Source: Acidobacteriota bacterium
Lineage (GTDB): Bacteria; Acidobacteriota; Thermoanaerobaculia; Multivoradales; UBA5704
Assembly (NCBI GenBank): GCA_040349255.1
Contig: JBEQUE010000144.1
Coordinates: 15,524 to 79,523, forward strand
DNA length: 64,000 bases
Direction: 5' to 3'
How positions within the stretch are numbered: the stretch's first letter is position 1; each line of letters starts with the position of its first letter. Below, piece by piece: positions 13,348-29,865 of the stretch. Under the pieces are notes generated by a model, which did not search any database, was not told the DNA's origin, and saw only the letters and a list, made by a program, of their open reading frames with translations. A program made the position numbers and the translations under genes.

Positions 13348-14190
13348 GTGAGAAAAAGAGGCGTTCCGGCAATGCTCGTGCTCTCTGCCCTGCTCGGTCT
13401 CTCCCCTCTGGCCGCCGATCCCACGATCCGGCGCGGCATCGACGTCTTCACCACCCGCGCCGACGGAAGGACCTACTACGACTTCGCCAAGCAACCCATT
13501 CCCGCGGGTTTCTTCTGCAACGCCTCCAAGGCCTTCACCGGCCGGGTGCCGCTCAAGGGGCTGCCTCTCGCAACCCAGACGCCGGGAGAGCTCCGGAATG
13601 CCGACACGATCGTCGAGCGTCTCGACGATGCCGTCTTCAACGGTAAGGACGTTGCCGAGACGCGCATCCGATTCCGGGCCTTGTCGCTGGTGAGCATCGC
13701 CCCCATCAAGACGGCCTGCGGCGACTTCCATGTCTACGTCACCCTCAACGGCCCGCAGCGGGCGACGACGATGAGCATCAGCCGCACCCAGCAAGGAGGC
13801 GGGACCTTTTCCGCGCCTCTCGCGGTCGACGCGCGCATGACCTTCATCCCCGTGAAGAAGTCCGTGAAATCCGCGACCGGCAACAGCGCGCAGAAGTGGG
13901 AGCTCACCGGAAGCTTCACCTTCCCTGCCAGCCCCGTCGCGTGGAGCCTGGGAAATGAGGCGATGAAGAGAATCAGCTCCCCGGTCGTCGACACCAATGG
14001 AGACCTGACTCCGGACACGCGGCTTCCCGGCACCTCGAACTTCCTGGCGGGCACGCCGCCCGGCAATGTCATGACTGGCGCGTACGGCAATATCGGGGCC
14101 TGCCCGTGTGAGCCGGTATGCCATGCCACCTCCGGCGAGATGCACTGCTCCTACCCGACAGAAGACTGCTACCCCGTCGTCTGTCCATAA
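13348..14190 (+). CDS. Secreted hypothetical protein with Cys-rich C-terminus
   Basis: N-terminal signal peptide MRKRGVPAMLVLSALLGLSPLAADP. Eight Cys near the C-terminus (ACPCEPVCHATSGEMHCSYPTEDCYPVVCP). Confidence 0.7.
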   Translation: MRKRGVPAMLVLSALLGLSPLAADPTIRRGIDVFTTRADGRTYYDFAKQPIPAGFFCNASKAFTGRVPLKGLPLATQTPGELRNADTIVERLDDAVFNGKDVAETRIRFRALSLVSIAPIKTACGDFHVYVTLNGPQRATTMSISRTQQGGGTFSAPLAVDARMTFIPVKKSVKSATGNSAQKWELTGSFTFPASPVAWSLGNEAMKRISSPVVDTNGDLTPDTRLPGTSNFLAGTPPGNVMTGAYGNIGACPCEPVCHATSGEMHCSYPTEDCYPVVCP

Positions 14191-14287: not shown

Positions 14288-14851
14288 TTAGAGGAAGATC
14301 TCGCCGAGAGGGATCTCCAGGCCGGGCAGGAGCGGGCTGGTCAGAATGTCGCCATCCGCCGCGGTCAGCTCCGCGCCCCCCTGGAGGCATTCCCCCATCC
14401 TGCGGAAGATCCGGGCCGCGTTCCGCGTCGGATCGACCATCCAGTACTCCTGGACGCCCAGGATCTCATAGCGCTCCAATTTGAGACCCTCGTCCCGTTT
14501 CCGAGTCGACGGCGAGAGCACCTCGATGACGAGGTCCGGCGCTCCCTGGACGTTCATCTCGGTAAGAATCCTCGCTCTCGCCTGGGAGACGAACAGGAGA
14601 TCCGGCTGGACGACGTCATGCTTGCCGAGCAGAACGTCGGCGGGAGCCACAAAGAGACGGCCCAGTCGATGACGGCGGACGAACGGCGCGATCCAGGAAG
14701 TCAGCTCGACGACGATGCTCTGATGCCACAGGTTCGGAGCCGCCGTCACGAAGTGCTCCCCGTCGAGGATCTCGTGACGGTACCCATCCTCCGGGAACAG
14801 GAGGTAGTCCTCGTAGGTGAGCTTGCGACGGACTGGATCTCGAAGGGCCAT
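14288..14851 (-). CDS. Uma2-family (DUF820) PD-(D/E)xK endonuclease-like protein
   Basis: MALRDPVRRKLTYEDYLLFPEDGYRHEILDGE...PDLVIEVLSPST.R.DEGLKLERY. The start is taken at an internal ATG; the track ORF extends upstream. Confidence 0.7.
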   Translation of the reverse strand: MALRDPVRRKLTYEDYLLFPEDGYRHEILDGEHFVTAAPNLWHQSIVVELTSWIAPFVRRHRLGRLFVAPADVLLGKHDVVQPDLLFVSQARARILTEMNVQGAPDLVIEVLSPSTRKRDEGLKLERYEILGVQEYWMVDPTRNAARIFRRMGECLQGGAELTAADGDILTSPLLPGLEIPLGEIFL

Positions 14852-15021
14852 GGCGACTCCCGTTTGCAGAGCCAGGAAGAGTTTAGCACGGGACACAATC
14901 CTCGGGTCGGAAGAAGTTCCGCCGGAGGATATCTCAGGACTCGCCGTCGTGGAACTCGCGACGAGGCTCGACTGCAATCGAGTCCGCGCTCCTCGAATCC
15001 TCGGACACCTTCTCCCGGAAT

Positions 15022-17424
15022 TCACGCTTTCCGGCGGCAGATAATCTTGTCTCCACTCGTTCCCACGTGATCAAAATACTTGGTTATGATCTCATGGCAA
15101 TGTCGACAACTGGGCCTTATGTCCTCGTGAAGTTCTAGGATGAGGGTATCCACTCTAGGAAGCCAGGAGGCGGAGGTCTCGAGGACCTCGACCTCAGAGC
15201 CTTCGATGTCGAGCTTCAGTATGTCGATGAAAGAGATGCCATACTCCTCCATAAGCCCATCGACAGTGACGGCTGGAACGGTTTGCATAACACTCCTACC
15301 ATCTAGATCACCTTCTACGGTCTGGAATCCCCATGCTCCACTTCCACCATCGATAACCTGGACGCAGGCTTTCTTGCACCAGAGCGCCCCTCTCACTGGG
15401 AATATATTTGGGAAAGGCATCGAATTTCGAACCAGGAGTTGAAAGTTGTGTTCCTCGGGTTCGATCGCGATGATTCGGGCATCGGGATATCGCAGGGCAA
15501 AGTCAACCGATGAAGCACCTATGTTGGCTCCCCCGTCAACAATCACTTTTGGAGGATGTCCGACCTCAAGGATATGAGGCTTCTCGCGGAAGATCTCGCG
15601 ATACACATCGAGATCCGTGGTCTCTGGTCGTATGTGCAGAATGTGACTACCTTCCAGGGCAACCCTTATTGTTGCCTCGTCGAGTTCGGTCCCATTGACA
15701 CTCTCTCCAGTCTCGCCAAACGAAAAATAAGAAGTAGCGGCCAGCCCAAGAAGGCGCTGCCCGACAGGCAGCAAAGAATGGATGTCTTCCCACTTATTTT
15801 CCCATAACGAACCTTGAAAGCCGAGTTCTTTCCAGAGGCGCTCGGCAAAATTGGGCATTATTGGCGCAGAGAGGATGGCCAAGAGCTTCGCCGCGAGCAG
15901 TTCTAGCGCGACGGCTGTCCGCCGCCTTTCATTTTGCGCGATAACTCGAAGCCAGCTTTCCTCGGATTTCGCGAAGCGCCTCGCATCGCGAACGAGCCAA
16001 CCGAGGACGCTTGCAGCGCACTGAGGCGAGAACGTCCTCGCCTCGTAGGCTTTGCTCGCCTGGGCAGTTAGCATGGTTAGTCGTTCTGCGAATCGCAAGT
16101 GCTCTTCCGCCCAACTACCAGCCCCAGGCACCCGTTCCTCGAACTCTCTAGCAGCCCGAACCGCCAATTCCCTGAGCCAAGCCTGCCATTCACGGATCAG
16201 TTCCCGGTCCACGTCCGCGGCGAGCTCAGCCAAACTGAAGTTGGTCCTCTCCACCTCGGGATATGTTGTCGCCATGTGAAAGCGTAGGGAGTCTGCGGGC
16301 ACCCTGCTCAGCAGATGCTGTCCCCAGATTGCATGCTGCCGGCTGGTTGAGAACTTGGAATGATCAAGAAGACGGAACTCGTTCATGAGCAGCGCCGAAG
16401 GAAGACGGATTTGCGAGTCAAAAGCCATCAGCAACGCGGGCACCAGAACTGCGTAGTAAAAAGCATTGTCGAATCCGAAACATTGAATAGCAAGGGAATC
16501 CCCATTCTTCCAGAATTGCTCCCAGCGGCCATCGAGATGCTGGGCATAGGTGAGATAGCGCGCGGCTTCGTCGCACCACGTATAGACTGTCTGGCCCTCG
16601 AATCCTGGAATTGCAATCGGCACCCCCCAGTTATCGTAATGAGAAACAGCAAAATTCCAGAAACCAACCTGTAGAGCCTGCTCGCAGAAAGATCTCAGAT
16701 TAGAGCTCATCGCCACCTTGCTCCAATATTCCTGCAGCCTGCCGCTATACTGGTCAAGCGGGAAGTAGAGGCGCTTCATAGCCCTGAAGGACGGAGGAGC
16801 GCCGCACTGGGCGCAGACCGGATCCAGAAGATCTACACAGCGGTTGGGCATACCGCAACTCTCACATCCGCTTCCCGTGGTACGGCTTCCACAATAGGGG
16901 CAGTGTCCAGAGATATAGTTCTCATAAAGCTGGCGACGACACGGTTCACAATAGGTAGTCGGGTCCACGCGGGAAATGAGCAATCCACGGGCATACAGGT
17001 TACCTAGAAAATCTTGTACGGTCGGTACGTAGAAGAGCGATGAATTCGGCCGAATAAACTGGTCGACGTCAATCCGCGCCCCCCTGAGCGTACTCGCTAT
17101 ACTTTCCGCCATTTGGTCTGCAACCTGCTGAGGGGAGACGCCAGCCTCCATTGCATGGATCTTGACGTCACTCTGATTGTCATCTGTACCAGTGAAAAAG
17201 TGAACCTCTGCGCCACGAAGCCGGAGGTAGCGCGACTGAATGTCTCCTGCAAGGTAGGGCCCGGAGAGATGGCCCACATGCAGATCGCCATTCGGGGTTG
17301 GGGGCGCTGCCATGACAAGTACGCGAAGAGAAGCATAGCGCAACGTATCCCGGCAGTCGCTCGCCAGGCCCTCGACCGCTCCATAACTAGAAATTATCTG
17401 CTTCTTCTCCCTGGGTTCTTCCAT
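15022..17424 (-). CDS. Methionyl-tRNA-synthetase-like class I aaRS catalytic domain (HIGH/KMSKS-like, Zn knuckles) fused to a C-terminal FkbM-family methyltransferase domain
   Basis: PPTPNGDLHVGHLSGPYLAGDIQSRYLRLRGAEVHFFTGTDDNQ (MetRS-like HIGH region). CEPC...CPYC...CESCG...CAQCG knuckles. LLDHSKFSTSRQ (KMSKS-like). C-terminus VVDGGANIGASSVDFALRYPDARIIAIEPEEHNFQLL (FkbM MT motif). ATG at 17424 with GGAGAG SD. Low-GC gene. Confidence 0.8.
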   Translation of the reverse strand: MEEPREKKQIISSYGAVEGLASDCRDTLRYASLRVLVMAAPPTPNGDLHVGHLSGPYLAGDIQSRYLRLRGAEVHFFTGTDDNQSDVKIHAMEAGVSPQQVADQMAESIASTLRGARIDVDQFIRPNSSLFYVPTVQDFLGNLYARGLLISRVDPTTYCEPCRRQLYENYISGHCPYCGSRTTGSGCESCGMPNRCVDLLDPVCAQCGAPPSFRAMKRLYFPLDQYSGRLQEYWSKVAMSSNLRSFCEQALQVGFWNFAVSHYDNWGVPIAIPGFEGQTVYTWCDEAARYLTYAQHLDGRWEQFWKNGDSLAIQCFGFDNAFYYAVLVPALLMAFDSQIRLPSALLMNEFRLLDHSKFSTSRQHAIWGQHLLSRVPADSLRFHMATTYPEVERTNFSLAELAADVDRELIREWQAWLRELAVRAAREFEERVPGAGSWAEEHLRFAERLTMLTAQASKAYEARTFSPQCAASVLGWLVRDARRFAKSEESWLRVIAQNERRRTAVALELLAAKLLAILSAPIMPNFAERLWKELGFQGSLWENKWEDIHSLLPVGQRLLGLAATSYFSFGETGESVNGTELDEATIRVALEGSHILHIRPETTDLDVYREIFREKPHILEVGHPPKVIVDGGANIGASSVDFALRYPDARIIAIEPEEHNFQLLVRNSMPFPNIFPVRGALWCKKACVQVIDGGSGAWGFQTVEGDLDGRSVMQTVPAVTVDGLMEEYGISFIDILKLDIEGSEVEVLETSASWLPRVDTLILELHEDIRPSCRHCHEIITKYFDHVGTSGDKIICRRKA

Positions 17425-17454
17425 ACACACTCTCCATGGCTGACTTAAATTAGC
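17425..17454. promoter_or_regulatory. 30-bp divergent intergenic spacer between the aaRS-like/FkbM gene and the CHAT-SIR2-NACHT gene. Promoters must overlap the coding regions.
   Basis: ATG 17424 (minus) and ATG 17455 (plus). Confidence 0.3.
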
Positions 17455-20400
17455 ATGCCTGACTATAACATACCGAAGACCTCGCCGAGAAGAGTCCTCG
17501 TTCTGTCGACAAACCCTGAGGATACCGAAAGGCTAGCACTTGAACGGGAAACCCGTCAAATTGAGCGTGCATTAGCGCATCGCGAAGGAAGTTTCACGGT
17601 GCGACACGCTATGGCTGCTCACCTTGAAGATCTCGAGGACAGCCTATTCGATTTTAAGCCGCAGTACGTTCATTTCTGCGGCCATGGCTTAAAAGGAGGC
17701 CGAGGTCTTGCCTTCCAGGATGACTCGGGAAGGACGAGTCCCGTTACCACGCGGCAGCTTAAGGAGTTGTTCTCTATCTTCAAAACGAACATCAGCTGCG
17801 TATTTCTCAATTGCTGCTTTTCGCGCCCCCAGGCAGAAGTGATTTCCGCTCATGTCCCCTACGTGATTGGAACAAGTGAGGCGTTTGACGATGAGTTGGC
17901 CGTTGTCTTCGCTTCAAAGTTCTACAAGGCGATTGGTCGTGGAAAAACGGTCCCATTTGCGTTCAAGTTCGCCCGCGCTGTTACCGCCGACAATTTGGAT
18001 TCCCTGATTCCGGTCCTAGTCCGAGGGCGGCGCAAAAATAAAACAAACCCTGGAGATAGCGTCGGCTCTTCTGGCACCAGCCAGTGGAAGGCAGGAAATT
18101 TAGGGCAACCCAAGGAGTTCCGCTCGTTCGATTTAGAAGCAAAGGAAGAACAGGCTTCGTTACACCTCAATACCTCGCAAAAAGAACAGGATCAGGATGC
18201 TCGGCGCGCTTCCCTGAGCCGCCTCTGGAATCGATTAGAACAAAAGCGCGAAGCCGTCATTTTTCTGGGTTCTGCTGCCTGCGCGGAGGGCTTCAAGGAG
18301 GGCAAGCCCTACCCCAGCTTGGATGCCATCGCCAAGCGAATTCTCGATGATGAAGGTCGAAGCACTGGCAATATGACCGACGTTCGCAAGGAGCTGAGAA
18401 ATACATTGCGGATGTGGACTGAAGGGGAGGGAGATCTTTCCGATTTTCTCCGAAAATATATTTCAGGGCAGCCCGGCGCTGCCCATCACTATCTTGCAGC
18501 CTTGGCTCTAGGCCTTTTCCCGGAGTTCAATCTCCTTCTGTTTGTAACGGCCGGATTCGATGACTTGATGGAGGAAGCATTCGTCAGTCTGCTAAGAGGT
18601 GAAACCCGACCCAAGATAAGGCATTACAGCATTGGGCATCAAGAAGAAACAGTTCCTAGAATTTTCGAGGAAGTCTCCGGTCAAGTGCGCAAGGGAGTGC
18701 CTGTTATACTCAAACTATTTGGCGATCTGGACGCAGAGAGTCCCCTGCTCTACCCAAAGACCAAAATTCGTCAGAAGCTTGGGAGCAGTATTCAAGGCTG
18801 GTTCAGCCGTCCCGTGCTCTTCATCGATTGCGGGCCCGAGGATAAAGCCTTTGAAGATTTGTTCTTTAAGACAGAAAAGCGTGGCCCCTTGTTTGTTATT
18901 GGTAAGAACCTTGCACAATATCGAAACGATCCTACTATTCATCATGTCGCCATATCGCTCATGGAATTCGGCCTAGAGTTCCTCGATATGGTGAGATCTA
19001 AAAATCAGGACCTTCTTAAGCGGGTAGAAGATCTCCTGCATAATGTAGATCCTCTCGCGCTCTATCCTGATTGTGAATCTATCATGGCACGCGCCGCTAT
19101 CGCCTCTCGCGCTTCGTTACTACGGGTGGAAGAGCGACTGCCGCGTAGCCGTTCCAATGAGGAAGGCCACGCCTTTGTGCCCATCGCTCGAATTGACACG
19201 CAACCTGATTTCGCGGCCTTCTTGCGGGACGGTAGGCCTCTCCTTGCATTAATCGGTGATTCCGGTTCCGGTAAGTCTACTCTCTTCTACCAAGTCCACC
19301 AAGCCGCGGGTGCTTTCATTTCGATCTTTTATGACATCCATCAACTTCAGGCCACGCGCACGCTTGCTGGTAGGCTTGCCCACGACTTCCTCTGTGACGA
19401 ACGCAATTTCGTCGACCTTGTTAGAGTACTCGACAAGGCATTGAAATTTGAGCAGCGAAAGCTTGTCATTTTTATTGATGGACTCAACGAAAGCCTTGAT
19501 CTGAAGCCTTCCACCTTGCGCTTTGAAATCGAGGATCTTGGCGCGAAACTGCCAGGAACAATCAAGATTGCCTATTCGTGCCGCAGAGTCTATTGGGACA
19601 ATTTCATCCGCAATACATCGCCGCTTTCCAAAGAACTATACTTTAATTCAAAAGAAATAGTTCTAGAGCACTTTTCTCCAAGAGAGGCGGAAAGCGCCTT
19701 CAAGTCATACCAGGAACTTTACGGATTCCTCGGTAACTATGCTTCATTGAGCTCCGAATTCAAGTTGAGAATTAAGGACCCGCTGATGTTGCGTATGCTC
19801 GCAGAGGGTTACGCGGGGAAGAAGCTTCCTGATTTCGCGCCTGCAGTGCTGATCTTCGATACTTACCATAAACGTTTCCGGCAGCGCTTCAAAGGCACTG
19901 TTGTACCGGCTTTCCTCGATGCGCTAGTGGCCGCGAAGGTAAATGAGACCGAGGCGGAACTCGCCTCCGATCAGTTCATCACTGAAGATGTGCGAACGCA
20001 CCCGAAACTCAGTCTTCTGATTCAACAGCAGATGTTGAATGCGCATCGGGGTGGGGACCCACTCCTGCTCCTCGAAGATGAAGGGATACTGACAGCTATC
20101 GATGACGATAGCACATCCTATCGATTCGCCTACGACCGGTTTTTTGAATATCTACTCGGAAAATCACTTTCAAAACTTCTGACTACCGGTTCTAGAGAGA
20201 GGTTCCGAGAGCGTCTTGAGAAGCAGATACGTAGATTAAGCCCCTTTCATTTTTCCTTCCTGCAAGCGCTGAAGTCGGAGGTCATTCGTCTCAACATTCT
20301 CGAGCCAAGCGGGCCCTGCTCCTTTTACGACCCTGAACTTGTGAGAGGACTTCTTGAGAACGAGGATGCGGGGATCGTTGCGTTCACGAAGGACCTGTTA

Positions 20401-21909
20401 AGAGAGTTGATGTTCGAGGGGGGGCGGGACCTCACGTCAGTGATAGCGCAGGTCTTTCAGGATGAGACGGCTAATCAGCTCTTGATGCTGGACATAGCCC
20501 CTGATTCGCCGCGCACGCTCCCCTTGGTTGTGAGAGGGTTGATGCAGGGTGCGAGAGAGATCGCTCGTCGCTGCTGCCATATCCTTGTCAACTTCTTATC
20601 CGAGCCGGAATCCCGGCGCCTCATCGAGGATGAACTCTTTCTCGAGCTTCGCAGGCCGCTTCAGGTCGCGACAATAGGTGGAATGATTTACTATTCAGCA
20701 GCCTTGGCCGGAGAAGCCGATCGTAGGGGTGCTGACCCTCTACCGATAATCCTAGATTTCTGGCGCCGAGCATGGGGAGTCGCAGAAAGGGACGAAAGGG
20801 ATGTCGAGGCGCTGGTCGGCGGCCTAGTGAGAATAGTACACACTGAGGCTGGCCGATTCTTCGGTGATGACAGCAGGAACGCTATGGACTACATATGGAC
20901 AGGCATGCCTCGTGAGATCAAGGATGTTTCCCTTCAGATGGTTCCATTTATTGTCGATTCTGACCGAAGGCTCCCCCCTGACATTCAGGAGATTCTCCTC
21001 TTCTTCGGATCGACCATACGCGATTGGTCAACTCGTCGCGATCCTGCTGCCTATGTAGAGAAGGACTATAAAATAGAGTTCACGATGGCACAGTGGATCC
21101 TGGTGCAGAGGGCGAGGCACCAATACAGCGACGTGAAGGAGACTCTTGAAAGCTTCGTCGCCACAGGTTATTCACGAAGCATTGAGGTGGCGCTTAGCAA
21201 TATGGAGTCCTGTTGCCTCCATATGCTCCTGAATGACAAAGCGCTTCTTAATGACGCTTATCAGACCATGCTTAAGTGGATGCCGATTTACCAGAGTGAT
21301 GAGCAAGGATTTTACGGGCACTTGGCCAAGGAGGACCCCTTCTCGCGCAACGAGTGCCCGATAGATATGGTTGGTCGAATTTCTCTCCTGGATGAGTTTT
21401 CTCCCAAGGAGGGGCGAATCCCGTTTCTTGAGCCTTGGTTCACTAGCCTGGACAGGAGAGACCGCCTGTACGCCCTAATCTGCGCCAGGAAATTGTGGCG
21501 TCATCAACCCGTAAAGATGCTCCAAACCCTCGAAGTCGTTTGTAGCTCGGATGACGAAACCGTCGCCTCTTGGCTGGACGTCATACTCAAGGAAATCTAC
21601 ATGGTTCTCCCGCGTCTCGTGGAGGAGTTCTTTCGGCGTACCGGCATGGAGCCGGCCCGAGCCCAAAGAATCAAGACTCGGTCGGACGTGGTGGACCCTA
21701 GCGCTGTTGTCCACCCTGGAGAGCCCCTCTACAAAGCGCTCTTCCTCGGCCCCCGAGAGCGCCGCAAGAAATTAGCTGAATGGTACCTTCATCTTCTTCA
21801 GTCCGACAGCTTAGAGGATTACTGCGACGCCCTTGCACGATGGTTCATTTCGAAGATCCACAACATGGATACGGGGAACCATGGGTTGAGCGCCGACCTT
21901 GATCCTTGA
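17455..21909 (+). CDS. Giant CHAT-like caspase domain, SIR2-like domain, NACHT-type STAND NTPase and long helical-repeat C-terminus protein (1484 aa)
   Basis: N-terminus RVLVLSTNPEDTERL...YVHFCGHG...CVFLNCCFS (His/Cys dyad). SIR2_2-like motifs AVIFLGSAACAEG, LLFVTAGFDDLMEEAF, ILKLFGDLD. Walker A LLALIGDSGSGKSTLF, Walker B KLVIFIDGLNESLD. Low-GC gene. Confidence 0.85.
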   Translation: MPDYNIPKTSPRRVLVLSTNPEDTERLALERETRQIERALAHREGSFTVRHAMAAHLEDLEDSLFDFKPQYVHFCGHGLKGGRGLAFQDDSGRTSPVTTRQLKELFSIFKTNISCVFLNCCFSRPQAEVISAHVPYVIGTSEAFDDELAVVFASKFYKAIGRGKTVPFAFKFARAVTADNLDSLIPVLVRGRRKNKTNPGDSVGSSGTSQWKAGNLGQPKEFRSFDLEAKEEQASLHLNTSQKEQDQDARRASLSRLWNRLEQKREAVIFLGSAACAEGFKEGKPYPSLDAIAKRILDDEGRSTGNMTDVRKELRNTLRMWTEGEGDLSDFLRKYISGQPGAAHHYLAALALGLFPEFNLLLFVTAGFDDLMEEAFVSLLRGETRPKIRHYSIGHQEETVPRIFEEVSGQVRKGVPVILKLFGDLDAESPLLYPKTKIRQKLGSSIQGWFSRPVLFIDCGPEDKAFEDLFFKTEKRGPLFVIGKNLAQYRNDPTIHHVAISLMEFGLEFLDMVRSKNQDLLKRVEDLLHNVDPLALYPDCESIMARAAIASRASLLRVEERLPRSRSNEEGHAFVPIARIDTQPDFAAFLRDGRPLLALIGDSGSGKSTLFYQVHQAAGAFISIFYDIHQLQATRTLAGRLAHDFLCDERNFVDLVRVLDKALKFEQRKLVIFIDGLNESLDLKPSTLRFEIEDLGAKLPGTIKIAYSCRRVYWDNFIRNTSPLSKELYFNSKEIVLEHFSPREAESAFKSYQELYGFLGNYASLSSEFKLRIKDPLMLRMLAEGYAGKKLPDFAPAVLIFDTYHKRFRQRFKGTVVPAFLDALVAAKVNETEAELASDQFITEDVRTHPKLSLLIQQQMLNAHRGGDPLLLLEDEGILTAIDDDSTSYRFAYDRFFEYLLGKSLSKLLTTGSRERFRERLEKQIRRLSPFHFSFLQALKSEVIRLNILEPSGPCSFYDPELVRGLLENEDAGIVAFTKDLLRELMFEGGRDLTSVIAQVFQDETANQLLMLDIAPDSPRTLPLVVRGLMQGAREIARRCCHILVNFLSEPESRRLIEDELFLELRRPLQVATIGGMIYYSAALAGEADRRGADPLPIILDFWRRAWGVAERDERDVEALVGGLVRIVHTEAGRFFGDDSRNAMDYIWTGMPREIKDVSLQMVPFIVDSDRRLPPDIQEILLFFGSTIRDWSTRRDPAAYVEKDYKIEFTMAQWILVQRARHQYSDVKETLESFVATGYSRSIEVALSNMESCCLHMLLNDKALLNDAYQTMLKWMPIYQSDEQGFYGHLAKEDPFSRNECPIDMVGRISLLDEFSPKEGRIPFLEPWFTSLDRRDRLYALICARKLWRHQPVKMLQTLEVVCSSDDETVASWLDVILKEIYMVLPRLVEEFFRRTGMEPARAQRIKTRSDVVDPSAVVHPGEPLYKALFLGPRERRKKLAEWYLHLLQSDSLEDYCDALARWFISKIHNMDTGNHGLSADLDP

Positions 21910-22144
21910 GTATCCGCCATCTTTCAATAGCCGAGGCATTGCTACTCCCGCCGAGGTGATAAACCAAGCTGACCGCTTCACTGCATGTTGCCCTGACTCC
22001 AGCTGCCCGAATGGCCAGATTCCACAGATCATCATAGCTAGCATTAGCCATAAGGTCGTAGAATCCATACAGTTCAATCGGTCGGTCGTGCGTGACAACC
22101 ACGAAGGAAATCAGGAACTTCGATCTCATCGGGTTGGCCTCTCG

Positions 22145-22867
22145 TCAACTGTGTAATGCGCGAGGGGCTTTGACTAGATGTTTGTGGTCGTTTTCGCCAG
22201 GGCCAAAGTATTCCCGGTTGTTGCAGCGGCGGCATATCTCTGAAGCCTCCTGCCTTTTGCCTTCTTGGAGCAGGTTACGGAGGTGGACGAATCGCGGGGA
22301 AAACCAAATCTCCTCAAGAGTCTGAACCGATATATTTCCCATGACATGGCTTCGCTCGGCGTCGTCACAGCAGAGCAGGACATCCCCGCCAACTGTAATT
22401 ATCAACATGTCAGTCGGAGCATAACATGGCAAGAACAGTGGCTCCTCCGTTGTACCCAGGAGCCCACCTCGATTCACAAGAACAAGATCCGAGGGGAACT
22501 GGATCGTCTGATAGGGCCTTTCCGGCATCGGCTCATAATCATGGCGTGTCACAATGAAGTGATCTATGCCGGCCTCCCTTAGGGAGGTGTAACGCTCATC
22601 AAGGAGAAGGTCTCCGTTGGTGAATAAAACCTGAAATGCATTTGGAAGACGGGCGGCCGCCTTCCTTACCAAAGTTTCCAGATCGCGACGCAAGAGCGGC
22701 TCATTGAACAAGTGATACGATAGGTTCCCTTGGAAATTGACCCGCTCCAACTCGGAAACAATACGATCGAACAACGATTCGCTCATAAAGAGATCGGTCT
22801 TGGGCGCGGGTAATACCGACACGGGGCAATAGCTGCACCGGCGATTGCACCGAGCATTGACCTCCAT
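22145..22867 (-). CDS. Small radical SAM enzyme with SPASM/twitch-like C-terminal Cys cluster (BtrN-like size)
   Basis: CNRRCSYCP (CxxxCxxC) near the N-terminus. C-terminal LLCCDD...CRRCNN. The start is taken at an internal Met (MEVNARCNRRC), which leaves a 5-nt gap after the DegT stop; the track ORF extends to 22966. Confidence 0.7.
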   Translation of the reverse strand: MEVNARCNRRCSYCPVSVLPAPKTDLFMSESLFDRIVSELERVNFQGNLSYHLFNEPLLRRDLETLVRKAAARLPNAFQVLFTNGDLLLDERYTSLREAGIDHFIVTRHDYEPMPERPYQTIQFPSDLVLVNRGGLLGTTEEPLFLPCYAPTDMLIITVGGDVLLCCDDAERSHVMGNISVQTLEEIWFSPRFVHLRNLLQEGKRQEASEICRRCNNREYFGPGENDHKHLVKAPRALHS

Positions 22868-22872
22868 TTCGA

Positions 22873-24225
22873 CTACGCTGAACCAACTTCCCTGGGGCTC
22901 GACAGGTTGTCCTCTAAACACGAGTTTGCCTCCGACGGCACGCTGGCGTTTTCCAATTGGTGCCAATAGTGCATGACCTTTTCTACAGCCCTGACGATAT
23001 CTTCAATCTCCGCGAGGCCCCCAAGAAGTGCATTGTGGGGGATGGCGATATAGCGACGGCGGGCCGCAACTGCCGTTGGTAGGTGGAAACGGGAAGGTTC
23101 GAAAGGGCTCGGCCCAGTCGCCTGATGGCGCCGCGGAGATCTCATGGGATTGAACAGTTGATTCTGGTTCAATGGATCATAGAGAGGCTGAATCGTCAAG
23201 CCTAACTCCGCCGTCAATGCGGCGGCAACGGTCTCTATGGGCACGCAGCCGAACCGCTCAAGTTGAAACTCCAGGCAGTAGCGGTAGAAGGTAGGCCGTC
23301 CCGCCGCCTCGGGTTTGTGGAGGGGGCGGACTCCCGATATCTCGCGGAGCCGCGAAGTCAGATGTGACGCGTTCTCTGTCCGAATGGCGTTCTCCTCGTC
23401 TAGAAATCGTAGACGATCGTGGAGAATGGCCGCATGGAACTCTGAAAGGCAATGGTTGTGTCCCTGGACATCTCCTGCGGGTTCAAGCTCCAGGCCTCTC
23501 GGTATTCGGCGCGCTACGTAGCGTCGGCCATCGGCCCGGAACTGCTGCAAGAGGCTGTACAGATTGGCATCCTTGGTAATCACGGCTCCGCCTTCGCCGC
23601 TGGCCAGGACTTTGCTCTGTTGCATGCTGAACACACCTGCAGCGCCGAAGGTTCCTACCTTTCTACCCTGCCAAGAAGCACCATGAGCATGCGAACAATC
23701 CTCGATCAATGGGATTCCGGTCGTGCTCGACAACTCTTGGAATGACGCGAGGTCGGCAACTGTGCAGTAGAGATGGACCAGCATAATAGCCGCCGTCGCT
23801 CTGGTAATTGCGTTCCGTGCCGCGTTAACGGACATACAGAGCGTATCAGGATCAACGTCGACCAGTATGGGGATACCTCCCAAGCGCGCTACAGAGGAGC
23901 CGCAGGCAACCCAAGTGAGGCCAGGAACGAGAACCTCCCGTCCCGGACCGATACCGAGGGCTTCGAGCGCGATTGTAAGGGCTGACGAACCGTTGGCTGT
24001 CGGAACACAGTAGGGCACTTCGTGGAAGGCGGCGAACGACTCTGCGAATTGTCGTTCGAAGGGAAGATCCTCCAAGCATGGCCCGCTGATCGTCCAGCGC
24101 TGCGAGCGAAGAACTTTCAAGAGAGCTTCTTCCGTGGATTGCTCCGCGCGCGGCCAGTTAGGCCAGGAAAGGCTTCTGACAGGAATTCCGCCGAGGATCG
24201 CCAAGAGAGACGAGGAAGCAGTCAT
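22873..24225 (-). CDS. DegT/DnrJ/EryC1/StrS-family PLP-dependent aminotransferase
   Basis: FSMQQSKVLASGEGGAVIT (PLP-Lys motif). The family also contains scyllo-inosose aminotransferases. ATGA overlap with the upstream gene. Confidence 0.85.
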   Translation of the reverse strand: MTASSSLLAILGGIPVRSLSWPNWPRAEQSTEEALLKVLRSQRWTISGPCLEDLPFERQFAESFAAFHEVPYCVPTANGSSALTIALEALGIGPGREVLVPGLTWVACGSSVARLGGIPILVDVDPDTLCMSVNAARNAITRATAAIMLVHLYCTVADLASFQELSSTTGIPLIEDCSHAHGASWQGRKVGTFGAAGVFSMQQSKVLASGEGGAVITKDANLYSLLQQFRADGRRYVARRIPRGLELEPAGDVQGHNHCLSEFHAAILHDRLRFLDEENAIRTENASHLTSRLREISGVRPLHKPEAAGRPTFYRYCLEFQLERFGCVPIETVAAALTAELGLTIQPLYDPLNQNQLFNPMRSPRRHQATGPSPFEPSRFHLPTAVAARRRYIAIPHNALLGGLAEIEDIVRAVEKVMHYWHQLENASVPSEANSCLEDNLSSPREVGSA

Positions 24226-25379
24226 CGTTGCAGTGTCAAGAATTCAATAAGTTTTCGGAACTGCTCTGGCACGGAGTGCTCACAGGAGGCTCCTTCGCCG
24301 ACAATAGGATCCTTGAAAAAATATGAAGCGGCATCCAATGAGCCGTGACAACCCGCTTCCGCAGCGTAGGCGACCACTCGTACAAGATCAATTATTGCAG
24401 GCGCTGCCAGAATTGAGTCCTGTCCTAGCCAATTGATCTTCAATTGCATTGGGACACCCAGGAAGCCGCGAAAATCAATGTTGTCCCACGCTTCCTTGGA
24501 GTCACCGCGCGGGGGATAATAATGGATATGGACTTGATGACCCGTCCCGTGCGCGCCTCCGGGCACATAGCCGAGGATGGAGCTCAGGCATTTGCTCTTC
24601 GAGATGATCTTCGTCTCACCGGCTCCAGGCTTGGACAAGGAGAGACCATCGTCATTACCGAGCAGGTTTGTACTGAACCACCCATCGATCCGAAGGTTCT
24701 TGTCCCTGAATGCCGGCGCGAGAGTAGTCTTGATGAAGGTCTGACCGGTTTTGCCATCGCGGCCAGCATAGATTAAACCCTTCTCTTCGGCGAGTTCCCG
24801 CAGGGGAGTAATTTCGGCCGGGTTCGGAGTGAAGTTAATAAAATGGGCTCGCGCCTCAATAGCGAGACGGAAGTAGATTTGGCTAACCGAATACGAGGCA
24901 CCCAACTCCAATTCATCGAGATTCCTCCAATCGATCCGCTCGTCAGCGTCCTGCTTGGGCACGGGCTCCGTCGGGCAAAGATTGACCAGTATCACGTGTC
25001 GCCAATCTTCTCTCCGCCGCTTCCTGTTCAGGTGGGCCGCTTCCCGTCGGATCCAATCGCCTATTGATTCTCTTTGGAGCTCAATTCCCTTTCTTGGCTT
25101 GATCCTTTGCAGGCGTTGCTTCGCCTTCGAGAGTACCTCCGGGGGGCATATGCGGTGTCGCTTACAGGAAGCGTACAAAGTGTCCTGATTCATGTCCCAG
25201 CCATGGATGGACATGGAGGAGAATGGCAAAAGCCGGCAACCGGATGCACGCACCAGAGGCGACTCCGTCGCCACGCCGAAACCGGCAATTTCTTCAGGTG
25301 GCATCGAAAGCCCAGCTGCCAACGTGCTACCGACCGCCCCTGCCAGTCCAGCAACCATGATAAGAGCTGGTTCTGCCAT
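24222..25379 (-). CDS. myo-Inositol-1-phosphate synthase (Ino1/MIPS) family protein
   Basis: IMVAGLAGAVGSTL (Rossmann), FINFTPNP, GRDGKTGQT, STNLLGNDDG (matches the MIPS SYNHLGNNDG motif). First gene of the MIPS-DegT-rSAM operon. Confidence 0.75.
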   Translation of the reverse strand: MAEPALIMVAGLAGAVGSTLAAGLSMPPEEIAGFGVATESPLVRASGCRLLPFSSMSIHGWDMNQDTLYASCKRHRICPPEVLSKAKQRLQRIKPRKGIELQRESIGDWIRREAAHLNRKRRREDWRHVILVNLCPTEPVPKQDADERIDWRNLDELELGASYSVSQIYFRLAIEARAHFINFTPNPAEITPLRELAEEKGLIYAGRDGKTGQTFIKTTLAPAFRDKNLRIDGWFSTNLLGNDDGLSLSKPGAGETKIISKSKCLSSILGYVPGGAHGTGHQVHIHYYPPRGDSKEAWDNIDFRGFLGVPMQLKINWLGQDSILAAPAIIDLVRVVAYAAEAGCHGSLDAASYFFKDPIVGEGASCEHSVPEQFRKLIEFLTLQR

Positions 25380-25650
25380 TCAGTTCTCCATACAGATTTC
25401 GGAAGAAGCAGATAATTTCTAGTTATCCGCTATCTCGAAGGTCCACTAGTAGAATATTCCTGCTGGGCGTTCAGTGATTATAGTGCCATTGTAAGTGTAT
25501 TCTGGCGATAGTCAACACATAATCCTTGTTCCGAACAAATATAAATCTTCGCGCTATAGCAACCGGCTGATCCCGTCGCATCGCATTATTTGTACCTTCC
25601 CTAGTAACCGCGTGTTCCTCAAGCGTGCCTGCGAACTTAGTTGTGACTGT
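25380..25650 (-). promoter_or_regulatory. AT-rich upstream/promoter region of the MIPS-DegT-rSAM operon and boundary of the low-GC island
   Basis: AT-rich non-coding stretch immediately 5' of the ATG at 25379. GC rises sharply after ~25650. Confidence 0.3.
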
Positions 25651-26018
25651 TGCTGATATGCGCACCTTGGACTATCTGCCGTGACGATCCGCTGGATGTG
25701 TCCGCGTTCCAGTTGAACGGTTCCGGGACTCCTGTTTCGTCGTATACGCACCGCCAACACCGGAACGTCTTCGATCATCTCGGCCTGGAAGACCGACCGC
25801 CGGCAACAGAACCGGGGAGGTCACCTGCACAAAGAGGTCCCCGGCGCACGCCCAGCGCCGGACCGCCCCCTCCCCGGCAGGCGGGCCTCTTCGGAACGGC
25901 GGCGGCCTTGGACCCGGCAGCCGCCGCTCCTCCTGGTTGTCAATGAACCTCGCTTCGCTCGGGGGCCGGCGAGGACGCCGGCGGTCCCAGCGAGCCCCCG
26001 CCCTCCCTCTTTCCTTCG

Positions 26019-26468
26019 CTAACCGGCCGCCGCAGCGACCTGCCGCCTCCGCCTGGCCTGGATGCCGAAGTCCTCCAGCTTGTCTGCGGCCGGTCCGTAG
26101 TGATGTTTCAGCGAGAACCGCAGGACCGTCGCCAGCCTCTGGCAGTCGGCCAACAGCGTCGCCAACTGCTTCGTCGCTTCCTGCTTGAGCGACGACAGGG
26201 CGGCCTGGGCCTGGATCAGCTCCTCCATATGGTTCAGCAGTTCCTCGAACTGGACCCGCTGGGCCTCCAGGTACGACAGCTCCGGGCGGTTCTCCTGCAT
26301 TCCGGTCAACAGGCGATGCCACTCCCTCAACTGCGCCGACCGGGTCCGGTCCGACGAGGGCTCCGTCCGGGCGGGAACGGCCGGGAGCTCCTCGGCCGGG
26401 CGCTCTCCGACGCCGTCCAACAGCTCCTGCACGTCTCGCAGGAGGTCCGTATACGTGCTTTCGGGCAT
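26019..26468 (-). CDS. Hypothetical protein, tandem paralog A
   Basis: 149 aa. Shares QRLATVLRFSLKHHYGP..KLEDFGIQ with the next gene. Confidence 0.6.
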   Translation of the reverse strand: MPESTYTDLLRDVQELLDGVGERPAEELPAVPARTEPSSDRTRSAQLREWHRLLTGMQENRPELSYLEAQRVQFEELLNHMEELIQAQAALSSLKQEATKQLATLLADCQRLATVLRFSLKHHYGPAADKLEDFGIQARRRRQVAAAAG

Positions 26469-26534
26469 GATCTCTCTCCTTGAAAAAAGGTGAGGGGGCT
26501 CGAACGGCCCGCCCCCTCGCCAAGTCAGAGGACG

Positions 26535-26927
26535 CTAATCAACCGACGGAACGGCAGTTTCGACCAGGGCGACCGACTCCGCCGGCGGCGGCGGCAGCTC
26601 GGGCTTCCTCGCACGGCTGCGGAAGGGCTGGATGCCGAACTCCACCAGCTTCTCCGACCTCGGGCCGTAGAGCTGCTTCAGCGAGACGCGCAGTACCGTC
26701 GCCAGGCGCTGGCACTCCATCGTCACGTCTTCCACCTGCTGCGTCGCCTTCTGCCTGCTCGCCGTCAGCGCGGCCTGGTTCTGGAACAGGTCCTCCGCCT
26801 GGGCCACCAGCGCCACGAGCTGCGTGCGCTGCGTTTCCAGGTGCGGAAAGTCCGCCAGGTTCACCTGCAGCGCCGCCAACAGCCGCTGCCACGCCCCCAA
26901 CTTCCCCGATCTCGTCGTCTCTCCCAT
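26535..26927 (-). CDS. Hypothetical protein, tandem paralog B
   Basis: 130 aa. QRLATVLRVSLKQLYGPRSEKLVEFGIQP. Confidence 0.6.
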   Translation of the reverse strand: MGETTRSGKLGAWQRLLAALQVNLADFPHLETQRTQLVALVAQAEDLFQNQAALTASRQKATQQVEDVTMECQRLATVLRVSLKQLYGPRSEKLVEFGIQPFRSRARKPELPPPPAESVALVETAVPSVD

Positions 26928-27365
26928 GGTCCTTCTCCTTTCCGAGCCTCGTGGCTCCTGAAAATCCGGCTCCTCCCCAGAGCCGGAATCCTTCTCCTTT
27001 CGCCTTCGAGGAGAGTCTACGAGGGATATTTACGAACTGTCTATGAATTTTTTGATGCCAACTGTGACCAAAAAGTCGGTGTCACCGACTTTTTGGTGCG
27101 AAGCACCGGATGGGGACGAAAAACTCCAACAAAGCCCCAAGACTCTTGGGGGATCAGGGGGCGAGGCGCTCGACCGCGGCGTCGGCGTGCACCTCGGCTG
27201 TCCTTGAGGGTAGGCACGGGGCGGTCCGTATCGATAGAATCCGGAGCGGTCCACAGGCTCGCGAAGAGGTTCCAAATCTGGCTCAGGGACGACGTCGGGC
27301 TTTGACGGGCGAGCACCGGGTTTACGGCCTACATAGTGCGGCAGGACGACTCAAGGAGGCATGGC

Positions 27366-28187
27366 ATGGCGCGGGGTCTAACGCGGGCGCAGCTCAAGGT
27401 GCGGATGCTTCGGGCGCTCTCCGGCCAGTCCCAGAAGGAATTCGAGCAGGCCACGAAGGTGGCCAACGTCACCGGGATGGAGAACGGCCAGCGCCACCCC
27501 ACCGCGGCCCAGATCGCCCTGATGTGTGAGAGCCTGGGCATCAGCACGGACGACTGCGAGACGCTGCTCCAGGACTACGAGGCGCGCGTCGCCCGGCATC
27601 AGGCGGCGAAGGCCGGCTCGGGCTCGGCCGGGCCGGAGCCGCCGCTGGTAATGCCGGCGAACGCTCAGGGTACCCAGGGCATTGCGTCCATCCTGGAGGA
27701 GGCCGAGGCGCGGCTCGGACGGGCCGGCGAGGAGCGCGCCGCCACCCGCGCCGCCGAGCGCGAGCAGGCGAAAGGACCGTGGGAGCGCCTGCGCAGGCTC
27801 GAGAGCTTCGACGAGATGGTGCTGGTGGCGCGGTCGTCCAAGGAGCTTCAGACCTGGGCCGTGGTCGAGCTGATCTGCGACGAGAGCGCGCGGATGGCGT
27901 CAGCCGGCGACCGCGAGTCCGCCGGGCGCGCCCGTAATCTCGCGGAGCTCGCGGTGGAGGTCGCCGGACGCATCCGGGCCACGGACGCCTGGCGCACCCG
28001 CGTCCGCGGCTTTGCCATGGCGCATCTCGCGAATGCCCTCCATGCCTCTGGCGAGGGCGACCTGGCCCGCGAGACCATGGAAGAGGCCGAGCGCCTCTGG
28101 GAAGCCGGCCAGGACCCCGAGCAGATCCTCGATCCCGGCCGCTTCCACGACCTCGTCGGCTCGATCAGCTTCTCGGACGCGACCTGA
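27366..28187 (+). CDS. XRE-family helix-turn-helix transcriptional regulator with ~200-aa C-terminal domain
   Basis: LSGQSQKEFEQATKVANVTGMENGQRHPTAAQIALMCESLGIS (HTH_3-like). Confidence 0.7.
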   Translation: MARGLTRAQLKVRMLRALSGQSQKEFEQATKVANVTGMENGQRHPTAAQIALMCESLGISTDDCETLLQDYEARVARHQAAKAGSGSAGPEPPLVMPANAQGTQGIASILEEAEARLGRAGEERAATRAAEREQAKGPWERLRRLESFDEMVLVARSSKELQTWAVVELICDESARMASAGDRESAGRARNLAELAVEVAGRIRATDAWRTRVRGFAMAHLANALHASGEGDLARETMEEAERLWEAGQDPEQILDPGRFHDLVGSISFSDAT

Positions 28188-28450
28188 CCTCATCCTTCGC
28201 GGCTTGACCTCATCCTTCGCGACTCTGGCTTATCCGCCGCGAAAAAGCCTTATCCGTCGCGAAGTCGGCTCATCCGTCTCAAAACAGCCTTATCCACGGC
28301 AGGACAAGGGTTTTCCGCCGTGGATGAGACCGTTTCGCGGCGGATACGGTTTTTCCGCGGTCGATAAGCCTGTCGCGGCCCGGATAGGCCGTTTCGCCGC
28401 GGATAAGGCGAAGCCGCGGCGGATAAGGCGGAATCGCCTTGGATAAGGCG
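28185..28450. repeat. Phased array of 13 x 20-bp units: 6 direct copies (consensus CTTATCCGYCGCGAA) followed by 7 inverted copies (TTCGCGGCGGATAAG), forming a ~265-bp imperfect palindrome centred ~28308
   Basis: ATCC cores at 28192, 28212, 28232, 28252, 28272, 28292. GGAT cores at 28322, 28342, (28362 variant CGAT), 28382, 28401, 28421, 28441. Spacing is exactly 20 bp. Confidence 0.85.
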
Positions 28451-28503
28451 TGCCCCCGCAGGTGCCAGATCACCACGTCCGAGTCCAGGAGGAAATCAGC
28501 CAT
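28279..28503 (-). pseudogene. Remnant of a PIN-domain (VapC-like) toxin gene: only the N-terminal MADFLLDSDVVIWHLRG motif remains, then it reads into the repeat array
   Basis: ATG 2 nt after the RHH gene stop, as in vapBC pairs. The PIN body is replaced by repeats. Confidence 0.45.
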
Positions 28504-28750: not shown

Positions 28751-28805
28751 AGGTATGCCTCTCTCCAGCACACAGGAATGTACCTTCCAGGCCACGGGTG
28801 TCAAT

Positions 28806-29865
<1,060 letters not shown>

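Follow-up and report, generated by a model that had tools for sequence, protein, structure and literature searches.

How a gene for a large STAND NTPase came to lie beside a set of small-molecule biosynthesis genes, and whether the two are functionally connected, is the question raised by a low-GC island in a 64,000-nt stretch of an Acidobacteriota genome (assembly GCA_040349255.1, contig JBEQUE010000144.1, positions 15,524–79,523), hereafter termed the window. The original prediction, made from the letters and open reading frames of the window, described in this island a MetRS-like/FkbM fusion, a CHAT-SIR2-NACHT protein, a radical SAM/SPASM enzyme, a DegT aminotransferase, and an inositol-phosphate synthase, and this gene content was confirmed. 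It did not mention the 25-nt inverted repeats, a GT2 remnant, or the loss of the canonical catalytic His from the SIR2-like domain. It considered the co-location of these genes unusual and perhaps the result of either two independent cargo modules or a functional link involving a second messenger or a modified nucleotide/cyclitol. It is well established from the related loci described below that the STAND gene and the biosynthetic operon form a conserved invertible pair. Judging from its sequence, the pair would act as a one-promoter either/or expression switch with a role in defence or competition, a reading to which we assign a probability of roughly 0.6. The principal features of the locus are as follows.

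24222–25379, minus strand: MIPS-type (inositol-3-phosphate synthase-like) cyclase, first gene of the operon (PF01658, PF07994)
22873–24225, minus strand: DegT-family pyridoxal phosphate-dependent aminotransferase, of the L-glutamine:(2-deoxy-)scyllo-inosose type by its nearest PDB relatives
22145–22966, minus strand: BtrN-like radical SAM dehydrogenase with a SPASM/twitch auxiliary-cluster domain, by profile and cysteine motifs
17455–21909, plus strand: STAND NTPase of 1484 aa (CHAT, SIR2_2, and AAA_16)
17383–17407: left inverted-repeat arm, with the core site ATAACTAGAAATTAT at 17383–17397
25402–25426: right inverted-repeat arm, with the core site at 25412–25426 on the minus strand, 22 nt upstream of the MIPS start
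15022–17430, minus strand: fusion of a MetRS-like amino-acid-activating enzyme with an FkbM methyltransferase (PF09334, 4e-79; PF05050, 2e-12; TIGR01444, 1e-20)

In every relative with readable downstream DNA, the STAND gene lies tail to tail with the MIPS-DegT-radical SAM operon. This convergent arrangement was found in the loci designated L001, L005, L006/L007, L008, L009, L010, L012, L093, L095/L096, and L098, of which L012 is a metagenome-assembled genome of Holophagales and L093, L095/L096, and L098 were obtained from a metagenome scan. Within the MIPS clade sharing at least 50% identity, the STAND gene is present in every locus with enough downstream DNA, and none of 76 loci from the wider MIPS family (≤40% identity) contains a radical SAM gene, a STAND gene, or inverted sites. 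The identities of the STAND, MIPS, DegT, and radical SAM proteins to those of the window fall in parallel, from 80, 79, 74, and 76% in L001 to 38, 52, 55, and 52% in L096, respectively. Searched for as a unit in other taxa, the STAND-operon block thus recurs in loci with host GC contents of 0.33–0.57, always at a lower GC than its flanks. The proposal of two independent cargo modules is not supported, as the STAND gene and the operon are paired in every locus examined and have co-diverged. L001 was considered as a candidate operon without a STAND gene, and this was rejected because its left edge encodes a STAND C-terminus (79% identity). In L006, the radical SAM gene has been lost through a deletion of ~650 bp.

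A second, independent instance of the cassette is found in L104. Near-consensus sites (ATAACTCGGAATTAT) are located in inverted orientation at 8588 (plus strand) and 15121 (minus strand) of this locus and bracket genes for a DegT protein, a BtrN-like radical SAM enzyme, and a FemAB-like protein, which are convergent on the gene for a 1129-aa STAND-class protein containing Mrr-nuclease and AAA_16 domains; a Xer-like recombinase gene lies just outside the sites. The STAND-class protein of L104 shows no detectable sequence similarity to the window STAND family. Bracketing repeats are absent from the sister BtrN/DegT clusters (L094, L097, L101, L102, and L105–L118), L104 alone having them. Because the class of the partner was kept after replacement of the family, functional coupling is favoured over hitch-hiking. 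The functional link considered in the original prediction is supported, but not in its second-messenger form, as the two units are convergent in one invertible segment and do not represent a synthase beside a receptor in one operon. In the same region of L104 (6356–19546), genes for a SAM-methyltransferase and a second DegT protein read inward from outside the arms, and a ResIII/SNF2 helicase gene adjoins.

The two arms of the window are complementary at 25 of 25 nt and are separated by 7,994 nt; their identity suggests recent recombination or gene conversion. The core site, (G)ATAACTWRNRATTAT(C), is ~17 nt long and imperfectly palindromic and is usually extended to (C)GATAAC…ATTATC(G). Exactly two matches to ATAACTWRNRATTAT, inverted relative to one another, are present in the window, compared with 0.00 expected by chance. 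Each of 11 related loci has an inverted pair of the site, the L011 contig opens with a single copy, and none of the 159 other loci examined as controls contains it; in all 12 STAND loci, the site brackets the STAND-operon pair. Across the loci, the arms lie 13–32 nt upstream of the MIPS start and 47–120 nt upstream of the STAND start. The site may resemble dif (ATAA-N-TTAT), although the spacing is off by one base, and the likeness was taken as no more than a lead.

Comparisons of gene order indicate that inversion of the block has actually happened and that both orientations exist in nature. L006 and L008 share a collinear block of which the flanks are swapped and inverted, with a recombinase gene on one side and gene X and a DUF2196 gene on the other. 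In L001, MIPS diverges from the MetRS-FkbM gene over a 26-bp gap that holds the site. The right arm of the window keeps the L001-like context on the MIPS side (the ancestral MIPS/MetRS junction), the body of the MetRS-FkbM gene follows the left arm, and one inversion between the arms interconverts the orders of the window and L001. In addition, both ends of the contigs of L007, L010, and L093 fall exactly within the arms, and the contigs of L011 and L014 start in an arm; an assembler breaks a contig when the sequence beyond a repeat branches. A gene for a XerC/D-like recombinase adjoins the block in L005, L006, L008, and L104 and is more distant in L098 and L009. These recombinases match XerC (8e-72) and XerD (8e-70) models with scores below the equivalog cut-offs, and tyrosine-type DNA invertase models at 1e-17 to 4e-20. 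Such a XerC/D-like tyrosine recombinase would invert the segment between the arms.

Promoters were searched for in the 260 nt outside each arm as matches to the sigma70 consensus, in phyla with poorly known promoters. The predicted promoters are listed below.

Window, 25488–25515, minus strand: predicted external promoter P_ext, TTGACT-16-TACAAT, 61 nt outside the right arm and directed towards MIPS
L012, facing MIPS: TTGACT-16-TAAAAT, 54 nt from the arm
L008, facing MIPS: homologue of the L006 promoter, on the recombinase side
L006, facing STAND: TTGCCG-17-TATACT, 65 nt from the arm
L009, facing STAND: TTGACT-17-TAAAAT, 17 nt from the arm
L096, facing STAND: TTGACA-17-TATAAT (12/12), 20 nt from the arm
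L098, facing STAND: TTGACA-17-TAAAAT, 19 nt from the arm

An inward sigma70-like promoter is thus located on a single flank in seven of eight loci. In the window, P_ext is the sole sigma70-like match in 25300–26100 (shuffled sequences gave a mean of 0.2) and lies within 25427–25700, in agreement with the AT-rich promoter region that had been placed at the right edge of the island; no promoter-like site was detected in 17200–17800, which includes the STAND end of the block and the start of the MetRS-FkbM gene. Across the loci, the convergent gene ends range from an 83-nt overlap to a 25-nt gap, and no terminator-like site was found in the convergent junction of the window. Because the MIPS start is only 13–32 nt from the arm, leaving no room for an internal promoter, the operon would be read from outside, and because the convergent ends abut or overlap with no terminator, transcription from outside would run into the antisense strand of the distal unit. 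Two convergent units with one outside promoter argue for alternative rather than joint expression.

In the mechanism that these features suggest, a single promoter outside one arm would drive transcription across the site into the unit facing it at the time, and the mRNA of the proximal unit followed by antisense RNA of the distal unit would be produced; read-through could extend into an outward tailoring gene on the far side, which in the window is the MetRS-FkbM gene. For the window copy, the predicted orientation is operon-ON/STAND-OFF. A lineage carrying the cassette would alternate between making an aminoglycoside-like compound and arming a STAND sensor, and its most likely role would be in defence or competition that varies by phase, by chemical means in one state and of the abortive-infection type in the other. 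Two observations underlie the anti-phage interpretation: phage infection is reported to be inhibited by aminoglycosides (PMC9239200, PMC11350373), and the STAND protein is Avs-like in architecture. More tentatively, the cassette could be a device for heritable bet-hedging, in which a Xer-like flip alternates a secreted aminocyclitol shield against phages or competitors with cell-autonomous STAND immunity of the abortive type, read-through enforcing the exclusion. The two states may then have to exclude each other, since the STAND protein would otherwise be triggered by the compound or by its effect on translation.

The switch belongs to a type of device already known, the chemistry varies an established pathway, and the STAND protein diverges within a class that has been described before. 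Switches with the promoter outside the invertible segment include the G segment of phage Mu (Gin), the Hin system of Salmonella, the vpma and vsa systems of Mycoplasma (Xer-like), the RecV system of C. difficile, and the invertons of Bacteroides. As in these systems, inverted sites bracket the segment, alternative 5′ ends face outward, a fixed promoter is predicted outside, a recombinase is encoded alongside (in the relatives), and both orientations occur in nature. However, the cargo here consists of two unrelated modules, a STAND NTPase and a multi-enzyme operon, in a block of 8–11 kb that is far larger than a typical inverton, and does not comprise variants of a surface protein or a specificity determinant. 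The recombinase is XerC/D-like, unlike the serine invertases Gin and Hin, and the window copy has none nearby. Literature searches yielded no matching description of an invertible defence or NLR cassette, and the union of the parts was not found in annotated phages or plasmids. Related papers are PMC5386303, PMC7672463, and PMC12529663.

As regards the chemistry, the MIPS family profile matches the inositol-3-phosphate synthases 7nwr (9e-64) and 1u1i (4.5e-52). The best PDB relatives of the DegT protein are 5w70 (1e-109), 5w71, and 2c7t (3e-92), all of which are L-glutamine:2-deoxy-scyllo-inosose aminotransferases; the next-best class, AHBA synthase, matches at 4e-49, and sugar-nucleotide aminotransferases are far behind the inosose class. 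The radical SAM family profile matches BtrN (4m7t) over the full length with an E-value of 5e-60, and the enzyme contains a CxxxCxxC motif at C40/44/47 and five further conserved cysteines (181, 199, 200, 245, and 248). BtrN is the radical SAM 2-deoxy-scyllo-inosamine dehydrogenase of butirosin biosynthesis (PMC10337720). No DHQS-like gene was called in any of the blocks, the cyclase being of the MIPS type instead. By homology, the three enzymes appear to carry the 2-deoxystreptamine logic over to an inositol-type carbocycle, and because the carbocycle enzyme is of the MIPS type and not DHQS-like, a cyclitol of the inosamine or streptamine type is the expected product and not 2-deoxystreptamine itself. 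The MIPS-type cyclase would convert a hexose phosphate to a six-membered cyclitol phosphate, and the BtrN-like dehydrogenase and the aminotransferase of the L-glutamine:inosose type would alternate oxidation and transamination to give an inosamine/streptamine-like aminocyclitol. The enzymes had previously been described as small-molecule biosynthesis-like, which is borne out and can now be narrowed to a 2-deoxystreptamine-type aminocyclitol core.

Lineage-specific tailoring would decorate this aminocyclitol; in the window, this would consist of ATP-dependent amino-acid ligation and methylation by the MetRS-FkbM fusion protein. Tailoring genes in the operons of the related loci encode a GT2 glycosyltransferase, an APH(2'')-like kinase (2e-23), a NodU/TobZ-family carbamoyltransferase (3e-43), a FemAB-like transferase, and FkbM-type methyltransferases. 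The window retains only a trace of the first of these:

21917–22114 (~200 bp), minus strand: remnant of a GT2 glycosyltransferase gene with an internal deletion of ~190 codons (tblastn)

Compared with the GT2 of L005 by tblastn, residues 213–265 correspond to 22075–21917 (64%) and residues 7–21 to 22114–22070 (93%). An intact GT2 gene is located at the equivalent position in L001, L005, L008, L010, and L012.

The operon resembles the butirosin-type 2-deoxystreptamine pathway (BtrC, BtrS/BtrR, and BtrN) in containing a full-length BtrN homologue and a homologue of L-glutamine:2-deoxy-scyllo-inosose aminotransferases, and in the order of steps, namely a carbocycle synthase, transamination, radical SAM oxidation, and a second transamination; glycosyltransferase, APH(2'')-like kinase, and carbamoyltransferase neighbours are also features of aminoglycoside clusters. 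It differs in the MIPS-type cyclase, which takes the place of the DHQS-like 2-deoxy-scyllo-inosose synthase, in the GT2 family of the glycosyltransferase, in the tailoring by a MetRS-like ligase-FkbM fusion in the window, and in its hosts, which are Acidobacteriota and unknown low-GC bacteria. No description matching a pathway with BtrN and an inositol-phosphate synthase was found in the literature searches. A BtrN-like radical SAM enzyme (45–56% identity) is also paired with an inosose-type DegT protein (44–50%) in L094, L097, L099, and L101–L118. These metagenomic clusters contain neither the MIPS clade, the STAND gene, nor the inverted sites of the window and are probably conventional aminocyclitol clusters of uncultured bacteria.

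The STAND protein comprises a CHAT protease domain (residues ~10–190), a SIR2-like domain (~255–530), a NACHT/AAA_16 domain (~590–900), and a C-terminal helical sensor region. The Pfam matches for CHAT and SIR2 are weak; AAA_16, NACHT, and NPHP3_N were also matched. Residues 1–560 were modelled (mean pLDDT 72.7) and compared with known structures using Foldseek, by which the first domain matched the SAVED-CHAT filament protease 8tl0 (3e-11) and caspases, and the second matched SIR2 of EfAvs5 (9jap, 1.4e-6), PsSIR2 (8w9l, 3e-5), and the AVAST5 filament (9nc9, 9e-4). The CHAT motifs are intact, with the His in HFCGHG73 and the Cys in FLNCC117, and Walker A (GDSGSGKS at 601) and Walker B (VIFIDG at 671) are kept in 11 family members. 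The position of the SIR2 catalytic His, as aligned to His146 of KomC, an NADase for which the structure of an H146N mutant has been deposited, is occupied by Phe in the window protein (KLFG420) and by Phe or Tyr in 11 of 11 members. The SIR2 Asn motif reads TAGFDD in the window, the conserved Asn being replaced by Gly in the CHAT-bearing clade, and the STAND proteins of the low-GC clade (L009, L011, L096, and L098) contain no CHAT domain.

The family is a rare one, with eight relatives (37–80% identity) among 5.8 billion clusters in a word-indexed search and ~36 representatives sharing the whole of the NTPase and sensor regions at E ≤ 1e-30 among 1.84 billion representative proteins searched with HMMER. 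PADLOC gave matches to Avs2 (1e-6, NTPase region only) and 'chat' (5e-10) and no Avs5-specific match. The protein resembles Avs5/AVAST type 5 and bacterial NACHT proteins in its architecture of an N-terminal effector, a STAND NTPase, and a C-terminal sensor, and shares with Avs5 the SIR2 fold and, in the window family, intact Walker A and B motifs. It differs from Avs5 in the additional caspase-like CHAT domain of the higher-GC clade, in the location of the window gene, which shares an invertible block with a set of biosynthetic genes, and in the replacement of the SIR2 catalytic His by Phe or Tyr, by which one defining catalytic feature is lost; the Avs models of PADLOC match it weakly and in the NTPase core only. 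The window STAND protein appears to be Avs5-like in architecture, and by analogy it may have an anti-phage role. No match to the protein was found in annotated phages, and in plasmids only its CHAT-like N-terminus of ~200 aa recurs. This module is present on cyanobacterial plasmids of Acaryochloris, Tolypothrix, and Microcystis with 36–40% identity (e.g. NC_009932.1, 13861–14475), where the copies are annotated within TIR-domain or CHAT-domain proteins, suggesting that it is a mobile effector or adaptor shared among conflict systems.

Two of the loci in which the STAND protein lacks CHAT contain further genes of interest. In L009, another gene encoding SIR2 and CHAT domains, together with PDDEXK_3 fragments, is located just outside the right arm (21309–23693) and may supply these functions separately, and the operon contains a 130-aa MIPS fragment (18445–18837). 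In L011 (1–5873), the site at the contig start is followed by the STAND gene and then by genes for an AP_endonuc_2 protein (a TIM barrel of the sugar-phosphate isomerase/inosose-dehydratase type) and a His_Phos_1 phosphatase; an AP_endonuc_2 gene also flanks the L009 block.

Several observations weigh against a one-promoter switch with a defence or competition role. No integrase or recombinase homologue was detected within the 64 kb of the window (tblastn), and a simulated flip deprives its MetRS-FkbM gene of the ATG. Because of these two features and the decay of the GT2 gene, the window copy may be locked or fixed rather than switching. The breaks of contigs at the arms could also be explained by the presence of the block in several genomic contexts in one sample. 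L005 has no clear outside promoter in the 260-nt scan, and in L104 genes read inward on both sides, indicating that strict ON/OFF expression is not general; moreover, the promoters are consensus predictions, from which, with the gene arrangement, the expression logic is deduced. L011 possesses a STAND gene (37% identity) and the site and no operon in the 2 kb visible, and it could be a derivative without the operon or with a different cargo. The loss of the SIR2 His in all members and of CHAT in the low-GC clade makes the effector activity and the immune role uncertain. Finally, the product of MIPS is phosphorylated and fully reduced, and the core includes neither a phosphatase nor an NAD-dependent dehydrogenase.

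In an alternative reading, the two units would be expressed jointly and the operon product, a signal or cofactor derived from a cyclitol, would be bound by the STAND protein, perhaps through its catalytically degenerate SIR2-like Rossmann domain, the site being mainly a shared operator and inversion incidental. The tight reciprocal linkage and co-divergence of the genes, the palindrome-like site upstream of both units (which could have a double role as an operator), the absence of the catalytic His from the SIR2-like domain of all members (which fits binding and not catalysis), and the possibility of transcribing both units of L104 from inward-reading neighbours are all consistent with such a ligand-receptor relationship. 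We nevertheless consider it unlikely, because the inward promoter is one-sided in seven of eight loci and the MIPS start lies 13–32 nt from the arm, because the abutting or overlapping convergent ends favour interference over co-expression, and because real inversions are documented. Furthermore, the recurrent accessory gene is that of a recombinase and no conserved transcription-factor gene is present, and a multi-enzyme de novo route from a sugar phosphate would be an unusual source of an alarm signal. The inward-reading genes on both flanks of L104, the L005 locus with no detectable outside promoter, and the 5′ end of the window MetRS-FkbM gene, which crosses the arm so that inversion alters its N-terminus and start codon, would also be expected if both units were expressed in both orientations and the flip exchanged promoters or partners, or if the STAND protein were a guard or addiction module stabilizing a biosynthetic island. 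This seems improbable, given that strong one-sided promoters are located at conserved distances from the arm (17–20 nt in L009, L096, and L098; 54–61 nt in the window and L012) and that the opposite end contains no promoter-like site.

Least probable is that the two units are independent cargo on one mobile island or that the arms are the terminal inverted repeats of a transposon. The lower GC of the block relative to its flanks everywhere, the recombinase genes nearby, and the decay seen in single copies (GT2 in the window, the radical SAM gene in L006, and the orphan STAND gene in L011) would fit such an origin. However, the pairing survives down to 38% STAND identity and across host GC contents of 0.33–0.57, and the partner class is kept in L104, where the partner is an unrelated STAND protein. 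The transposon interpretation was rejected because the block contains no transposase gene, related genes (FkbM, MetRS-FkbM, and the second DegT of L104) and foreign low-GC DNA reach beyond the arms, and L006 and L008 contain the flipped block in the same frame. A one-promoter switch between the operon and the STAND gene is thus the reading preferred here.

The MetRS-FkbM gene reads outward from a position outside the invertible block, and its first ~16 codons cross the left arm into the block. The protein retains the HIGH (HVGH51) and KMSKS (KFSTS359) motifs, four CxxC zinc knuckles, and the FkbM motif GANIG634. Its closest MetRS-like homologues, P0002 (74%) and P0003 (69%), share the FkbM fusion, and only these three proteins contain FkbM in place of a cupin, their genes being located with cyclitol genes and no N-hydroxylase gene; more than 100 further homologues with 45–60% identity are cupin fusions adjoining genes for Lys/Orn N-monooxygenases. 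In L005, a stand-alone FkbM gene (53% identical) occupies the equivalent outside position. The fusion of a cupin and a MetRS-like domain is the architecture of hydrazine synthetases (PMC12376268). The window protein shares with these enzymes, which are of the Spb40/Tri28 type (PMC12376268, PMC10445470), the MetRS-like domain with HIGH and KMSKS kept; unlike them, it has no cupin and no associated N-hydroxylase, is fused to FkbM, and is encoded next to cyclitol enzymes. No PF13434 N-hydroxylase gene was found in the island, and such genes are present beside the cupin fusions in L002, L003, and L004. Because a cupin and an N-hydroxylase are missing and FkbM and cyclitol neighbours are found instead, N-N bond formation is not expected, and the protein is likely to be an amino-acid ligase acting on the aminocyclitol, as its domains and neighbours suggest.

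The cupin-fused relatives beside Lys/Orn N-monooxygenase genes in L002 (1–17900), L003, and L004 (8631–11989) look like parts of uncharacterised biosynthetic clusters for N-N bonds of the hydrazine type. On a Thermoanaerobaculia-type contig, cupin-MetRS is also found near genes for a nitric-oxide synthase, a carrier protein, an ATP-grasp-like protein, and a radical SAM/SPASM protein, and in Pendulispora brunnea, cupin-MetRS relatives are located between genes for large Ser/Thr kinases.

The drop in GC reported for ~15,030–25,650 is real: in 1-kb windows, the GC content is 0.503–0.587 at 15,001–25,000 and 0.64–0.77 on both flanks, and at a resolution of 200 nt the borders of the island lie at ~14,900–15,100 and ~25,700. 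GC3 is 0.57–0.63 for five island genes versus 0.83–0.97 for host-like genes. In 5-kb windows, the tetranucleotide correlation to the host profile (27–64 kb) is 0.39–0.62 in the island and at least 0.96 elsewhere, and the deviation remains strong after normalization for base composition (r = 0.68 for the island versus 0.94–0.98 elsewhere). The low-GC island is therefore foreign and horizontally acquired, as had been proposed; besides composition, this is supported by a break in the synteny of the backbone and by the recurrence of the STAND-operon block in other taxa and contexts. Region 26,058–39,945 of the window is collinear with the relatives L173 and L172 (75–96% amino acid identity), and the collinearity halts at the right edge of the island. 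Beyond this edge, L172 contains an unrelated 111-aa ORF and a HATPase_c_4 gene (2.3 kb visible), the L173 contig stops within ~200 nt of the island junction, and L174 diverges earlier. The break in synteny is thus evident on the right side, but the left and right flanks are never spanned by one relative, so that the evidence for the relatives lacking the island is partial. The 64-kb window contains no detected tRNA or Rfam family, and around the island neither att sites nor flanking direct repeats were found beyond short matches at the level of chance. The features at the two edges are as follows.

25427–25700: AT-rich non-coding DNA on the outside flank of the right arm, with a GC of 0.485–0.49 that jumps to 0.675 at 25,700; foreign low-GC DNA forming the right end of the island
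14288–15025, minus strand: Uma2-family gene (PF05685, 2e-34; PADLOC PDC-S03, 2.5e-33) with an intermediate GC3 of 0.77

The presence of the Uma2 gene just beyond the left edge agrees with the original prediction; its true start is probably near 14851. It was rejected as a member of the conserved unit, since among the related loci a homologue is found in L006 alone (63% identity) and its GC3 is intermediate. More conflict-type genes of intermediate GC lie to the left, so that the island sits within a variable region. A second conflict-type locus at 4329–9968 (GC 0.51–0.65; GC3 0.65–0.71), with no inversion sites nearby, encodes a 731-aa WD40-repeat protein (4329–6524, plus strand) beside a 1048-aa STAND protein of Mrr_cat-CHAT-NACHT architecture (6822–9968, minus strand). 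The latter was rejected as kin of the L104 Mrr-STAND protein, the sequences being unrelated. Between the two STAND loci, a 451-aa eCIS_core protein (PF13699, 5e-28) is encoded at 10552–11907, and the neighbouring genes at 11980–13251 and 13348–14190 have no Pfam match.

To the right of the island, two paralogous small ORFs on the minus strand (149 and 130 aa; 26019–26927) have no Pfam match and share a 104-nt direct repeat with 77% identity (26044–26147 and 26614–26717). They are kept in L172 and L173 and are therefore part of the host backbone, which stops at the border of the island. Upstream of an HTH_3 gene (27336–28187), a perfect 15-nt hairpin palindrome (ACCAAAAAGTCGGTG/CACCGACTTTTTGGT, 1-nt loop) is located at 27067–27097 in a local low-GC patch (26900–27099, GC 0.52).

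If the proposed switch is real, it would join phase variation by DNA inversion, NLR/STAND immunity, and specialized metabolism in a single locus. To our knowledge, it would be the first bacterial immune-type STAND gene under inversion control and the first switch with a complete small-molecule pathway as alternative cargo. The short conserved site and the recombinase would represent a compact inversion module that could be reused as a genetic tool, and in genome annotation, recombinase genes and short inverted repeats near defence genes should not be dismissed as debris of mobile elements. The MetRS-FkbM protein would represent a new off-shoot of the MetRS-like enzymes of hydrazine synthetases, fused to FkbM. 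For the uncultured Acidobacteriota, the operon would specify an undescribed aminocyclitol chemotype with a MIPS-based inosamine/streptamine core made by a BtrN-type enzyme and decorated with aminoacyl, methyl, carbamoyl, or phosphoryl groups, and the alternation of this compound with a STAND sensor would offer a testable answer to the cost or incompatibility of defence layers.

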